Assembly (NCBI GenBank): GCA_902560315.1
Contig: CACELG010000004.1
Span: forward strand, 8,038 to 72,037
DNA from: an uncultured SAR86 cluster bacterium
GTDB taxonomy: Bacteria > Pseudomonadota > Gammaproteobacteria > Magnimaribacterales > D2472
Direction: 5' to 3'
Length of the DNA stretch: 64,000 nucleotides
The translations under genes were made by a program, and so were the position numbers. Position 1 is the first letter of the stretch; each line of letters starts with the position of its first letter. Below, one piece after another: positions 7,391 through 15,068 of this stretch. The notes under the pieces were generated by a model that was given only the letters and a program-made list of their open reading frames with translations, did no database searches and was not told the origin of the DNA.

Positions 7391-8338
7391 TTAATTTATT
7401 AAGCCGTAAAGATCGTATTGTGATACAAAATTCCATATTTCATTAGAAGCACTTACGTTATATTCTGCTGTGGAGGGCCAAGTATGTCCCATCGTTGGAT
7501 GAAGAATTAGTTTTACATTTACGTTGTTTAAACAATTTATATAAGTATCGTAAAGAATTAAATCAAAATCATTTGAGTATTTAATTAGTCTGTCTGGATC
7601 TGAGCCGCAAGAATTATAATTTACCCAATAATCTATAACATCAGGAATGCTTTTAGAGCCTGCATTACCATCATATGGAACAACGTAATCAAGCAGACCA
7701 TGAATCTGTAATACTGGTGTAGGATGAGAAGGAGAGCAATCATCATAAGTTCCAAAGGTCATGGAACCTGTTACAGATGCAATTGCAGCAAATTTCTCTC
7801 CAAGATTACAAGCTAAGTGATAGCTCATATATCCACCATTAGACATTCCAGATGAATATATTCTAGTTTCATCAATCATAATTTTATTTTTGGTAAAATT
7901 AATTAATGTATCAATAAATTCTATATCTTTGACTGTACTTTTTGATGTCCAACCACCAACATTCCAATGTGAAGATAATGTGTCTGTTGTTGCCCCTTGA
8001 GGATAAATAATCACTAAATTATTAGAATCAGCAATTGGTATATAGTTTGTATAACTGAAGTGTCTATATGCAGAAGAACCATAACCATGAAGAGCAAATA
8101 ATACTGGAATACTAGAATTGTTATCTAAATTTTCAGGTATATAGATATAGTAGTGTCTATCGAGGTTATCATGTTTTAAGTCACACTTTTGAAGATTTTC
8201 AATTGAAGTATTTTCACAACTTTCATTATTAGTATTTGTATCTGGTGGGCTTACAGATTGATTATCAGAATTTGAGGATCCACCTCCACCGCATGAAGAT
8301 ATGAGAAATAACAATAAAAATTTTGTTGTAGACTTCAT
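7391..8338 (-). CDS. Lipoprotein esterase, PHB depolymerase/LpqC-like alpha/beta hydrolase
   Basis: Lipobox LISSC-GGGG, LHGYG oxyanion motif, YPQG, GMSNGG nucleophile elbow, IHGLLDYVVPY, GHTWP. Confidence 0.85.
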   Translation of the reverse strand: MKSTTKFLLLFLISSCGGGGSSNSDNQSVSPPDTNTNNESCENTSIENLQKCDLKHDNLDRHYYIYIPENLDNNSSIPVLFALHGYGSSAYRHFSYTNYIPIADSNNLVIIYPQGATTDTLSSHWNVGGWTSKSTVKDIEFIDTLINFTKNKIMIDETRIYSSGMSNGGYMSYHLACNLGEKFAAIASVTGSMTFGTYDDCSPSHPTPVLQIHGLLDYVVPYDGNAGSKSIPDVIDYWVNYNSCGSDPDRLIKYSNDFDLILYDTYINCLNNVNVKLILHPTMGHTWPSTAEYNVSASNEIWNFVSQYDLYGLIN

Positions 8339-8348
8339 CTTTGTATGT

Positions 8349-8424
8349 TGGTGCGGTACGCCGGTCTCGAACCGGCGGCCTTCTGCTTGGCAAGCAGACG
8401 CTCTACCAACTGAGCTAGTACCGC
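8349..8424 (-). tRNA. tRNA-Gly(GCC), 76 nt, encoded CCA, discriminator A73
   Basis: Cloverleaf: acceptor GCGGTAC/GTACCGC, D arm GCTC/GAGC, anticodon arm TCTGC-TTGCCAA-GCAGA, T arm GCCGG-TTCGAGA-CCGGC. Confidence 0.95.
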
Positions 8425-8435
8425 ATTGGTGAGTT

Positions 8436-8464
8436 AATATACTCCTTTAAACATCTGCTTTCAA
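8436..8464 (-). promoter_or_regulatory. Sigma70 promoter of tRNA-Gly
   Basis: Minus strand TTGAAA-N17-TATATT, 11 nt before the tRNA 5' end. Confidence 0.75.
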
Positions 8465-8482: not shown

Positions 8483-8962
8483 TTATTCGAATGATATTTC
8501 CTGTATATCTTTAAATTTACCGGTGATATCTCTTTTTGAAACTATAAAAGATGATGGTTCTATATGAAGTGGTATTGCTATTTCAACAATAGCTGAGCTA
8601 ACAGGACCTCCCATATGTTTTCTATCTTCATAACCAATATGTTGATAAGTTGCATAAAAGGGATTTCCTATCCCAATTGCATAAAGGTATTTATTATCCT
8701 TGCCAAAAACTTTAATAGCATAAGTATCATCATCACTTAAAAATTTTATTTTTTTTAGTAATCTTTCATTTGGTTTATCAACCTTAATTTTTTTTATAGA
8801 GAAGTTGCTTGGAGAACCATCAAAAGAAATAATATAAGCATCATTAAATGGATTTGCATGAATTTTATTAAGTTTTTGCTTATCAATGACTTCATTTGAT
8901 TCGACTGACCAAGATAAACTAAATATCACTGTAAAAAATACTATATTTTTTTTGATTACCAT
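8483..8962 (-). CDS. Secreted hypothetical protein, translationally coupled to the M64 peptidase
   Basis: N-terminal signal sequence; 7-nt overlap with the upstream gene; beta-rich, with a GNPF...IAIP pattern. Confidence 0.6.
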   Translation of the reverse strand: MVIKKNIVFFTVIFSLSWSVESNEVIDKQKLNKIHANPFNDAYIISFDGSPSNFSIKKIKVDKPNERLLKKIKFLSDDDTYAIKVFGKDNKYLYAIGIGNPFYATYQHIGYEDRKHMGGPVSSAIVEIAIPLHIEPSSFIVSKRDITGKFKDIQEISFE

Positions 8963-11007
8963 CTTTCCCAGTTTATCCCCCAGGTTCCACCCATTGGACC
9001 ATTGATATACCCATAATCATATTGCGTTCTGTCAGTTGGATTAGTACCCCACTGCTCAGAATTATAATCATACCAATAAAAATCTGAATTAAATAAACCT
9101 TCATAAAAATCATCGGTATCTGTCACATCGTCTGGCGCCGTAACTGTTCCTGTTAAGTCATCAACTCGCCAAGTATAAACCTTAACAGAATTATCAGATG
9201 GTCTATTAAAAGTAATTTGGGTTTGATTTTCTAATGTGGGATCCTCTACTCCGTCAATATACCATTTTAATCTTAATTTTGATGAATCATATGCAACATC
9301 TATATCAATATCAAAACCTGTTCTTGATCCGGCATCATCTGAAATAAAACCTACATCATCTCCATAAACAAAACCTTGATTATGAATTGAACCAATTGCA
9401 AACCCCTCAACATTAACTTCACCATATTGATCAGTATTAACTTCCATAATTGTTAAAAATTTTGGTCTGTAATTATCGAATTCACCATAATAGTTTCCTT
9501 CAAATAAACCAACTTGATTACACATTGGATTTCTTCCAGTTCTATTTCCATTTGCATCATAAACGTTATAAAGACAATCACATGCAGTTGGATCATCATC
9601 ATCGTCGTCATAAAGTCCAACCGTCCCATCTGACCAGTTATAGCAAACGTTAAAAGTACTTCCAGCAACATTTGTTAAATCGTCAATATGATGTTTCCAT
9701 TTTACTTGGGATGGATCTGACTGGGTTGTTGTATTGACATTCCTATCTGCCCAGAAACTAACATCTCTGTCATCATCTGATATATATTCATCGCCCATTT
9801 CGCCATGAGCATGTCCAAGCTCATGCATAAGAACATATTCAGTTCTTGTACCAATTGGTTGAATATTGGTATTTCCTAAATTTACACCTCTGCCATCAAT
9901 CATTGTTAATACAGAGACAAGATCATTTTCTGAAAATAATTCATCAAATACTGATGTATTGATATCGCTGGAACCAATGCAATAAACATCTTCATCCCAG
10001 TCATAACATCCTGTTTCGATTGAAGCTAATGAAGTGCCATCAGGGTTTACAGGCTCTGCAACAATAATATCAAAATATCCTGCAAAAAATTCTGATACAT
10101 CAGAGTCATTAAGACCGTTAATTGACCTTAGCAAGGCATCTCTAAAATTTTCTAAATCAGAATTTGTTCCATTTGTCGGACTTTCTTCTAATGAATCAGC
10201 TACAAATAAATAATCAGTTCTTCCAAAAGATGCATCACCTCCAACAAGATAATAAACATAATAATCTTTATCAGTAGTTGTTCCAGAGTCAAAACCATCG
10301 CTTTTATCATCATCCATTGGAACTGTTACAATTTTTTTGTCAGCAATGAACCACGAATTGAATGTATCTGAACTTACAAGATCTCCATCTGATACTTTAA
10401 GTTCTGCACTTAATAATCCAGCATTAATTAAACCTGATAAATCAAGAGTTACTTCTCCAGTTCCTTCACCAGTGGAAACAAATGAAGTTGGAATATCTTC
10501 TTGATTTACACTTGCAGAAAAAACTAAATCAATATCATCATTATCAACATCTGAGAATGTTATTGAATATTTTGGATTAGATTCAAAGATTAAGTTGTTT
10601 TTATCTAAATTTGTCTTTGATGTCATTAAAATTTGAGGACTATCATTTACTGCGTTAACTGTAATAGAAACTGTACTACTTCTAGTTATATTTTTTTCAG
10701 AAGCAGTAACTGAATATGTAAATTCATCTTGTCCAAAAAAATTAGTATTCGGAGTGTATGAAATTGCAGCATTGATAGTAGAAAAAGTAAGAGTTCCATT
10801 AGAAGTTGAACTGGTTAAAGAATATTCAAGTGTAACGACTTCATTGGCACTTGCTGCCATCGATCCATTATAAGAAGTATCTTCATTGGTTGAAAATGTA
10901 TTTTGAGCAAGTGTTAAAGCAAAGGGTACTTTTGCGCCGCCTCCTCCACCTCCTCCACCACATGAAGAGATAATGATTGCAATCAATAATAATTGTTTCA
11001 AACGCAT
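8956..11007 (-). CDS. Surface lipoprotein with cadherin-like/Ig (Big_9-type) repeats and an M64 (IgA-peptidase-like) zinc metallopeptidase domain
   Basis: Lipobox IISSC-GGGGGG; TNEDT...YTPNTNFFGQDEFTY...VNAVND cadherin-like repeat; VLMHELGHAHGEMGDEY (M64-type HExxH...DEY); VGLFEGNY...YRP...IM. Confidence 0.8.
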   Translation of the reverse strand: MRLKQLLLIAIIISSCGGGGGGGGAKVPFALTLAQNTFSTNEDTSYNGSMAASANEVVTLEYSLTSSTSNGTLTFSTINAAISYTPNTNFFGQDEFTYSVTASEKNITRSSTVSITVNAVNDSPQILMTSKTNLDKNNLIFESNPKYSITFSDVDNDDIDLVFSASVNQEDIPTSFVSTGEGTGEVTLDLSGLINAGLLSAELKVSDGDLVSSDTFNSWFIADKKIVTVPMDDDKSDGFDSGTTTDKDYYVYYLVGGDASFGRTDYLFVADSLEESPTNGTNSDLENFRDALLRSINGLNDSDVSEFFAGYFDIIVAEPVNPDGTSLASIETGCYDWDEDVYCIGSSDINTSVFDELFSENDLVSVLTMIDGRGVNLGNTNIQPIGTRTEYVLMHELGHAHGEMGDEYISDDDRDVSFWADRNVNTTTQSDPSQVKWKHHIDDLTNVAGSTFNVCYNWSDGTVGLYDDDDDDPTACDCLYNVYDANGNRTGRNPMCNQVGLFEGNYYGEFDNYRPKFLTIMEVNTDQYGEVNVEGFAIGSIHNQGFVYGDDVGFISDDAGSRTGFDIDIDVAYDSSKLRLKWYIDGVEDPTLENQTQITFNRPSDNSVKVYTWRVDDLTGTVTAPDDVTDTDDFYEGLFNSDFYWYDYNSEQWGTNPTDRTQYDYGYINGPMGGTWGINWERW

Positions 11008-14144: not shown

Positions 14145-15068
14145 TTATGAATCAATAAATTTAAGAGTTTCTTCTCCAAATTCAGACCACCAATCCATGC
14201 CCATTAAGTGGATTTTTTCAAGGTTTTCTTCAGAGTCATCGTCTAAGAATCTATTAATTTTTCCTAGAGGAGAATTTATTCTAAGATAATTATCAGTGAA
14301 GAATTCATTTGAAATTTCATTATGAATTTCCGAGTCTAATAGCATTCCCATAATATCATTTCTTAGCCAACCAACGCCTCCCCATTTTGTAGATGTGTCT
14401 CCATTTATTTTATTTTTATTTTGTCCAGATCCTAAGCTTAAGATTTTGATATTATTTGTCTCTAAAATTTTTTTTGAGTATGAAAAACCAATTAAAGTTG
14501 GATTATTTGTAATTATACTTCCATCTATCATCCACGATTTGTCTTGCATTTGATATGTAGGAAAATACATTGGGGCTGCACTTGAGGCGGCGATTGCGTC
14601 TTTAAAAGTTACTTCTGGTGTATTTGAAGAATCAAAAACGACATGACTTCTTTTTTCAATATCATAGGCGTAACATAAAAAAGGTTTGTTAGATTCTCTT
14701 AGTGTGTTTTTTTTGAAGATTTCATCTAACATCTCTAATCTACCATCGCTTTCATATCTTGGTCTAGCTTGAAATAAAGATGCTTTATCCCAGAAAAAAG
14801 AACTTTTCATTATTTTATCTAAATAACTTTTTGTCCAATAGCTCTTAACTTTATCAGCTGAAAATCCTCCGAATGCAAAACAAGCAGCATTAAATGCTCC
14901 AGCACTTGTACCAATAAACATATCAAATATATCTGAAACTTTCTTACCACTCTCAGCTTCCAATTTTTTTAAAAAAACAATCGATGCTATTGTCCTTACA
15001 CCACCACCATCAAAACATATAATCTTTTTATGATTAAACTTTGAAAGGAAACTAAAAAAATTCTTCAT
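14145..15068 (-). CDS. Patatin-like phospholipase
   Basis: DGGGVR, GTSAG (catalytic Ser), ASSAAPMYFP, IDGSIITNNP. Confidence 0.92.
   Translation of the reverse strand: MKNFFSFLSKFNHKKIICFDGGGVRTIASIVFLKKLEAESGKKVSDIFDMFIGTSAGAFNAACFAFGGFSADKVKSYWTKSYLDKIMKSSFFWDKASLFQARPRYESDGRLEMLDEIFKKNTLRESNKPFLCYAYDIEKRSHVVFDSSNTPEVTFKDAIAASSAAPMYFPTYQMQDKSWMIDGSIITNNPTLIGFSYSKKILETNNIKILSLGSGQNKNKINGDTSTKWGGVGWLRNDIMGMLLDSEIHNEISNEFFTDNYLRINSPLGKINRFLDDDSEENLEKIHLMGMDWWSEFGEETLKFIDS

Follow-up and report, generated by a model that had tools for sequence, protein, structure and literature searches.

A tRNA-Gly(GCC) gene with discriminator base A73 in the marine SAR86 lineage

Why should a gammaproteobacterium of the SAR86 cluster carry a tRNA-Gly with the discriminator base A73? 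This question is raised by a stretch of 64,000 nucleotides from contig CACELG010000004.1 (assembly GCA_902560315.1), in which a tRNA-Gly(GCC) gene ends in A73-CCA. The whole 64-kb stretch analyzed is hereafter called the window. U73 is an identity element for the E. coli glycyl-tRNA synthetase (GlyRS), an (alpha-beta)2 enzyme, and the U73A change costs approximately 11-fold. It is also an anti-determinant for the bacterial D-aminoacyl-tRNA deacylase (DTD), the activity of which is approximately 100-fold higher on A73 Gly-tRNA(Gly). Among 232,109 bacterial tRNA-Gly genes, Kuncha et al. (eLife 2018) found 239 with A73 and 231,855 with U73, and they termed U73 invariant. Later reviews described U73 as required "in all bacteria" to shield Gly-tRNA(Gly) from DTD, or as the bacterial state. 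An earlier note on this stretch, made from its sequence, had claimed that A73 is rare in bacteria and that U73 has these two roles. The literature agrees with both claims, and the rule has sizeable exceptions in the scan described below.

In the present study, we concluded that the A73 tRNA-Gly(GCC) of SAR86 is genuine and not an assembly error, and that, in the sampled SAR86 (Magnimaribacterales) genomes, it is a core gene passed on vertically under strong constraint. This contradicts the published claim of U73 invariance in bacterial tRNA-Gly. The explanation we favor, at a probability of approximately 0.7, is that the gene encodes the core proteinogenic tRNA-Gly(GCC), that U73 was changed to A73 in place, and that the change is tolerated through an alpha2 GlyRS and a relieved DTD constraint.

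The tRNA gene and its conservation across SAR86

ARAGORN called three tRNA genes in the window, including this tRNA-Gly(gcc) (Table 1). The tRNA-Glu and tRNA-Leu genes of the window also have an encoded CCA. The Rfam tRNA model matched the gene from end to end (E=8.7e-14) with all pairs standard. In the RNA sense, the 5' part reads GCGGUAC UA GCUC AGUUGGUA GAGC G UCUGC UUGCCAA GCAGA and the 3' part reads AGGCC GCCGG UUCGAGA CCGGC GUACCGC A CCA. The acceptor comprises G1-C72, C2-G71, and G3-C70, followed by A73. The glycine identity set of G1-C72, C2-G71, G3-C70, C35, and C36 is complete, and the discriminator differs from the bacterial U73. ARAGORN, Rfam, and the sequence itself bear out the cloverleaf, the GCC anticodon, the three acceptor pairs, and the A73-CCA end that had been described earlier; the gene lies on the minus strand, which had not been stated. 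The features of an elongator tRNA are present, namely, stems of 7, 4, 5, and 5 bp, G18G19, and T54-T55-C56. The tRNA pattern found no chance match in 100 shuffles. The minimum-free-energy fold (-36.4 kcal/mol, z=-3.06) matches the cloverleaf in the acceptor and D stems and departs from it in the anticodon and T stems, which are two pairs longer each with loss of the seven-base loops. A promoter candidate lies upstream, its end 12 nt from the tRNA 5' end; in this AT-rich DNA, it is not significant against shuffles (3 found, 2.0 expected).

Table 1. Positions of the tRNA-Gly(GCC) gene, its parts, and its neighbors in the window
Feature	Position	Strand	Basis
tRNA-Gly(GCC) gene, 76 nt, encoded CCA	8349..8424	minus	ARAGORN; Rfam RF00005, 72 bits
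Discriminator A73 (plus strand T)	8352	minus	Direct sequence reading; no variant in 4 DNA runs or RNA-library contigs
Genome-encoded 3' CCA	8349..8351	minus	Sequence
Anticodon GCC (positions 34-36), reads GGC and GGU	8389..8391	minus	ARAGORN
Sigma-70-like promoter candidate, TTGAAA-17-TATATT	8436..8464	minus	Consensus scan, 10/12 matches
Downstream neighbor: PHB-depolymerase-family esterase (synteny anchor, not part of the tRNA)	7391..8338	minus	NCBIfam match below cut-off
Upstream neighbors: 159-aa ORF of unknown function and 683-aa tandem-95-repeat protein (synteny anchors)	8483..11007	minus	

In four independent marine metagenome runs, a unitig over 8349 to 8425-8429 showed 0 differences from the window and no variant at 8352; the reads therefore uphold A at position 73. 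The k-mer depth of the tRNA unitig was 47-192, versus approximately 4-20 for the strain-specific flanks. Since its depth greatly exceeds that of these flanks, many co-occurring genotypes carry the same tRNA. Three of four metatranscriptome assemblies contained the tRNA with A73 unchanged; their contigs include flanking sequence, such that precursor RNA and DNA carry-over are inseparable. There is a negligible chance that A73 stems from faulty sequencing or assembly or from a mutation private to one strain, and nothing was found in favor of this. It is already refuted by the four metagenome runs, 11 other genomes, and the metatranscriptome contigs, all of which have A73.

These genomes came from a scan for tRNA-Gly(GCC) with A73-CCA in one genome per GTDB species, in which at least 119 genomes matched; the matches are a sample. 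The identical 76-mer was present in at least 11 SAR86 species-representative genomes, which include single-amplified and metagenome-assembled genomes (MAGs) from different groups and methods. Six of the 11 are labeled SAR86, four are labeled only Gammaproteobacteria or gamma proteobacterium (including SCGC AAA168-P09), and one is labeled Hyphomicrobiales. All 11 were assigned to SAR86 because they share synteny with the window, and the organism of the window is itself identified as SAR86 by the synteny of its locus with SAR86-labeled contigs. An identical copy of its ribonucleotide reductase beta protein occurs in GCA_902522145.1 and in TARA assemblies. The G+C content of the window is 29-35%, and its genes are ordinary chromosomal ones, including those for malate synthase G, SecDF, Tgt/QueA, LepA, LysRS, RF2, and ribonucleotide reductase. 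We noted that L067, a locus with 33.5% GC and the label "Hyphomicrobiales", shares synteny with the SAR86 locus and is a probable mislabel or mis-binning.

A twelfth genome, a SAR86 MAG from 1000 m (L140), has four substitutions, comprising the change of C31-G39 to G31-U39 and two T-loop bases, and keeps A73. Position 73 in other SAR86 genomes, which the earlier note had proposed to check, was A in all 12 sampled with a scan pattern that demanded A73. Gene order around the tRNA was the same in 12 of 12 loci. Homologous DNA was present on both sides in nine loci, and in the other three the available sequence ends beside the tRNA. It was found on the esterase side in 10 of the 12 (the tRNA is near the end of the available sequence in L080 and L100) and on the upstream side in 11 (near the end in L131). 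Flanking protein-coding DNA has 64-78% nucleotide identity, versus 100% for the tRNA (95% in the variant). A tRNA that is near-invariant between such diverged flanks indicates strong purifying selection and vertical inheritance.

Another possibility is that the gene is an accessory or mobile tRNA and that a canonical U73 tRNA-Gly(GCC) elsewhere does the main work. A73 tRNA-Gly(GCC) does occur on 58 IMG/VR viral contigs, and A73 genes lie inside 14-22-gene tRNA arrays of other bacteria (L081, L141, L162, and L146). However, the SAR86 gene is a lone tRNA among housekeeping-type genes, and its location is unchanged across 12 genomes that have diverged deeply. Its neighbors (the esterase, the repeat protein, and a TonB receptor) include no integrase or phage gene. 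Furthermore, SAR86 genomes are streamlined (1.1-1.7 Mb), which makes a redundant copy unlikely, and the observed k-mer depth, 10-20 times that of the strain-specific flanks, is what a clade-wide gene would show. We consider a mobile origin to be very improbable.

Of the glycine codons in the 21 window ORFs used for codon counts, 53.5% are GGT (35.5%) or GGC (18.0%), and no second GCC tRNA was found in the window or the related loci. These features of the sequence point to a mainstream elongator, neither specialized nor accessory. The earlier note had also considered a non-standard role. Such a role might be non-translational, for example, that of a glycine donor like the staphylococcal cell-wall tRNA-Gly. 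The unusual discriminator, and nothing else, speaks for it. Non-proteinogenic staphylococcal tRNA-Gly is marked by loss of G18G19 or of the T-loop consensus, by a weak T stem, and by redundancy with a proteinogenic copy. In contrast, G18G19, T54-T55-C56, and a G+C-rich T stem are all kept in the SAR86 tRNA, which has every canonical elongator feature and reads, with no other GCC tRNA in sight at these loci, 53% of glycine codons. We regard a non-translational role as scarcely credible, and this part of the earlier proposal is not supported.

Glycyl-tRNA synthetase, deacylase, and the UCC isoacceptor

How could a bacterial tRNA-Gly dispense with U73? No GlyRS gene was found in the window or related loci by NCBIfam scans of 40 window ORFs or by tblastn with a Thermus alpha2 GlyRS query. 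Information on the clade is available from Ramfelt et al. 2024 (ISME J; PMC11582366), who described the first SAR86 isolate, HIMB1674, and its closed genome. Table S1 of that study lists 280 CheckM gammaproteobacterial markers, and its visible portion covers 47 genomes. In this portion, PF02091 (GlyRS alpha) and PF02092 (GlyRS beta) are undetected in HIMB1674 and score zero in 44 of the 47 genomes, i.e., in all 44 true SAR86. The three genomes scoring 1 for both are of 45-49% G+C, with size estimates of 3.5-4 Mb; that study puts two of them in Pseudohongiellaceae UBA9145 and none of the three in a SAR86 family. Of the 28 markers not detected in HIMB1674, 27 show a systematic absence across 732 SAR86 genomes. 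The text of that study treats DNA repair, and GlyRS and tRNA are unmentioned in it. We noted that the 28 missing markers, as far as the visible table goes, include RadA, RecN, RuvABC, MutS/MutL, Rep, ClpB, PrfC, SspB, PrmA, and PrmB.

Since a GlyRS is indispensable and glyQ and glyS are undetected, we infer that SAR86 must use a dimeric alpha2 GlyRS. With an alpha2 enzyme in place of GlyQS, the synthetase-side need for U73 would be gone. The Thermus alpha2 GlyRS and the bacterial-type alpha2 enzyme of jakobid mitochondria charge A73 and U73 tRNAs alike, and the archaeal and eukaryotic alpha2 GlyRS pair with A73. The clade seems to have changed its glycine identity system, with A73 and without (alpha-beta)2 GlyRS. 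The earlier note had proposed a possible switch of glycine identity with an altered or alpha2-type GlyRS and a lost or modified DTD. The undetected glyQ and glyS provide indirect but strong support for the alpha2 branch of this proposal; the alpha2 gene itself was not seen. The earlier interpretation as a whole is partly supported: the change in the identity system gains support and the non-standard role does not.

On the deacylase side, tblastn with an E. coli DTD query found no dtd in the 64-kb window or related loci. DTD lies outside the marker table of Ramfelt et al. 2024, and the word "deacylase" appears nowhere in the supplements (PMC11582366). A protein search seeded with E. coli DTD returned Enterobacteriaceae only, and its reach stopped short of SAR86. 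A HMMER scan of 1.84 billion cluster representatives gave 12,074 DTD-like clusters, which are unnamed. From these searches, a low-GC, proteobacterial-looking DTD (P0197) was picked by composition as a candidate SAR86 DTD and rejected because it turned out to be from Succinatimonas/Succinivibrio (Succinivibrionaceae). SAR86 may instead keep a bacterial-fold DTD beside A73 Gly-tRNA(Gly), with a re-tuned discriminator preference, as in eukaryotes, or with other protection of the charged tRNA. We hold this to be rather unlikely, while giving it a minor but real chance. If it is true, an abundant ocean bacterium would have independently reinvented the DTD-tRNA code switch.

We also looked for the UCC isoacceptor. 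A metagenome scan for A73 tRNA-Gly(UCC) found 120 loci from many lineages. The tetranucleotide correlation with the window was at most 0.78 for these loci, as compared with 0.76-0.90 among genuine SAR86 loci. L207, which was the best candidate of low GC, was rejected because it encodes RNase Y and, thus, is not gammaproteobacterial. In marine runs that contain this SAR86 population, a gamma-like tRNA-Gly(UCC) 3' half ending in A73-CCA was present at depths of 38-153 (compared with L223:44-120). In one such contig, the sequence runs on into a tRNA-Thr (GCTGATATAGCTCAGTTGGTAGAGC), in line with the gammaproteobacterial glyT-thrT order upstream of tufB. This 3' half may be the SAR86 UCC isoacceptor; its sequence is suggestive and not assignable to SAR86. 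Separately, one identical A73 tRNA-Gly(UCC) (GCGGCTGTAGTTCAATGGTAGAACGCTAGCC...) occurs on many metagenome contigs with G+C from 44% to 61% (L200, L208, L220, L228, L233, L241, L253, L260, L268, L273, and others). Its wide recurrence suggests that this gene is phage-borne or otherwise widely shared.

We propose the following scheme. The single-copy core tRNA-Gly(GCC) of SAR86 would be transcribed probably from its own promoter and matured by RNase P, with CCA addition being unneeded, and would decode GGC and GGU, about half of glycine codons. In an otherwise bacterial tRNA body, a point substitution would have changed U73 to A73, the state in every SAR86 genome sampled. The (alpha-beta)2 GlyRS, for which U73 is an identity element in E. 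coli, would have been replaced by a dimeric alpha2 GlyRS tolerant of A73. The DTD-side constraint on U73 would also have been relieved, through a loss of dtd like that in Mollicutes or through a change in the N73 preference of DTD. After replacement of the GlyRS, both constraints on U73 would have been relaxed; A73 may then have become fixed and may now be held by co-adaptation. GlyRS replacement with probable loss or re-tuning of DTD, followed by fixation of A73, is the most likely mechanism.

Fixation may also have been driven by positive selection, for example, for escape from U73-reading TacT-type acetyltransferase toxins, which is compatible with the proposed scheme. The occurrence of U73 as well as A73 in Mollicutes speaks against this, as it fits drift once a constraint has been lost. 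In the literature, the specificity of TacT is set by U73 and G71, and A73 was retained in the SAR86 lineage with four other changes, both of which favor selection. We give it a small chance.

Several points weigh against the proposed scheme. The alpha2 GlyRS of SAR86 was deduced solely from the essentiality of GlyRS, and the relief of the DTD constraint was assumed. U73-bearing SAR86 lineages were invisible to the genome scan. The metagenome collection contained 0 records with C, G, or T at position 73 behind the same 3' half, which favors the scheme, but this zero count has no positive control there. No SAR86-like locus was among the 120 A73 UCC loci, and the SAR86 UCC isoacceptor was not found. 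The list of missing markers, in the visible portion of Table S1, also names FtsY and the M domain of SRP54, both almost certainly encoded in a divergent form; therefore, a "No" in this table means non-detection by a hidden Markov model (HMM), not proven absence. For these two markers, non-detection is probably an HMM failure in a fast-evolving lineage. The same failure is less likely for the very conserved GlyQ.

This bears on an alternative in which SAR86 keeps a divergent (alpha-beta)2 GlyRS that lies beyond the CheckM Pfam models and has co-evolved to accept A73. SAR86 evolves fast, the two essential proteins above also escaped detection, and a fused E. coli alpha-beta enzyme supported yeast mitochondria, the tRNA-Gly of which has A73. 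However, GlyQ is among the most conserved bacterial proteins. Moreover, in the visible part of the table, both subunits are missing together in HIMB1674 and 44 SAR86 genomes, and the three non-SAR86 genomes score 1 for both. We consider this alternative to be improbable.

As a free-living gammaproteobacterium that is abundant worldwide and represented by a cultured isolate, SAR86 offers a natural test case for the DTD-discriminator model. Absence of dtd from SAR86 would give the DTD-constraint model a clean phylogenetic confirmation beyond parasites; its presence would require the model to be revised.

A73 in other bacteria and the surroundings of the gene

Is SAR86 alone in this respect? Lineages were counted by a hand tally from record titles and tRNA sequences. 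The at least 119 A73 matches include approximately 60 Patescibacteria (candidate phyla radiation), 32 archaea (as expected), 12 SAR86, three mycoplasmas, four Alphaproteobacteria from the gut, and some singletons. In three gammaproteobacterial MAGs of high GC, the A73 gene lies inside an array of 14-22 tRNA genes. A73 in Gammaproteobacteria with a standard GlyRS and DTD was not found to be common among the matches listed. A73 tRNA-Gly(UCC) is likewise common in metagenomes. The literature searched contained no description of these bacterial A73 exceptions or of A73 in SAR86. We concluded that the rule of U73 "in all bacteria" is an artefact of sampling and that SAR86 is part of the wider evidence for this. 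The "bacterial" discriminator rule covers well-sampled cultured phyla and not the whole domain, as the Patescibacteria radiation uses A73. Annotation based on tRNA identity and the engineering of orthogonal pairs, when they assume bacterial U73, would misjudge A73 lineages.

Other observations were made among these matches. The arrays (L081 2202-4716, L141 3780-6136, L162 6680-7987, and L146) comprise 14-22 tandem tRNA genes including the A73 tRNA-Gly; their hosts are high-GC gammaproteobacterial MAGs, one with a 6-Mb Ca. Rariloculaceae chromosome, and a Planctomycetaceae MAG. The three gammaproteobacterial arrays have an odd 95-nt tRNA-Ile(TAT) call. L081, L141, and L162, which have a similar T arm and high GC, were considered as relatives and rejected as tRNA arrays. 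Gut and rumen Alphaproteobacteria MAGs (L125, L147, L152, and L166; Ca. Enterousia and relatives) have tRNA-Gly(GCC) with A73. A73 in extant Alphaproteobacteria is the mitochondrial state and bears on the published scenario of a mitochondrial U73-to-A73 change. L137, labeled "Neomarinimicrobiota", has a tRNA-Gly identical to that of the Poseidoniia archaea L070 and L101 and is a probable mislabel or mis-binning.

Around the SAR86 gene, the tandem-95-repeat protein of 683 aa (8956-11007, minus strand) adjoins a TonB-dependent receptor gene. The position of the repeat gene is kept in most SAR86 loci at only approximately 64-66% nucleotide identity. Elsewhere in the window, a full-length IMES-1 RNA motif was detected at 1376-1567 on the minus strand (189.8 bits versus a gathering score of 81). 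IMES-1 is an environmental marine RNA of unknown function, and this copy is located on a SAR86 chromosome, upstream of the malate synthase G gene. A patatin-like ORF at 14145-15068 (minus strand) best matches a CBASS cGAMP-activated phospholipase, with a score of 136 bits where the cut-off is 200, and adjoins rhodanese and choline-dehydrogenase-like genes.

Comparison with known systems

The closest familiar system is the tRNA-Gly(GCC) of E. coli (glyV/X/Y/W). It shares with the SAR86 tRNA the length of 76 nt, an identical D arm, a 5-nt variable loop, the TTCGAG T loop, G1-C72/C2-G71/G3-C70, C35, C36, and the encoded CCA, with 71% identity to glyV. E. coli differs in having U73, an (alpha-beta)2 GlyRS, and a DTD held off by U73, whereas the SAR86 tRNA has A73. 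Archaeal and eukaryotic cytosolic tRNA-Gly, which work with an alpha2 GlyRS, share A73 with SAR86, for which a dimeric GlyRS is presumed. However, archaeal tRNA-Gly differs in the D and T loops, and archaea are without a canonical DTD. Identity to two archaeal tRNA-Gly genes was 53% (Poseidoniia) and 67%. Since the body of the SAR86 tRNA is bacterial, we infer that A73 arose in place and not through an imported archaeal tRNA.

Thermus thermophilus has a bacterial alpha2 GlyRS for which A73 equals U73 in charging; however, Thermus itself keeps U73. The elements G10, U16, and C50-G64 read by the Thermus enzyme are present in the SAR86 tRNA, but also in E. coli, and hence are non-discriminating. 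The mitochondrial switch from U73 to A73 (Gogoi et al. 2022) was, as proposed here for SAR86, an in-place transversion in a tRNA of bacterial ancestry in a changed GlyRS and DTD setting. It differs in its proposed driver, fit with the eukaryotic DTD, whereas SAR86 is not known to have such a partner.

In Mollicutes, the only GlyRS is the alpha2 type, and dtd is missing in all but Acholeplasma (A. laidlawii). In Metamycoplasma orale, M. faucium, and Mycoplasma enhydrae, the GCC and the UCC tRNA-Gly both carry A73. These mycoplasmas are host-associated Mollicutes with documented dtd loss, whereas SAR86 is a free-living gammaproteobacterium. Like SAR86, however, they are bacteria with A73, and with their alpha2-only GlyRS, the arrangement that we propose for SAR86, they are the strongest precedent for a bacterial lineage that departs from the U73 rule.

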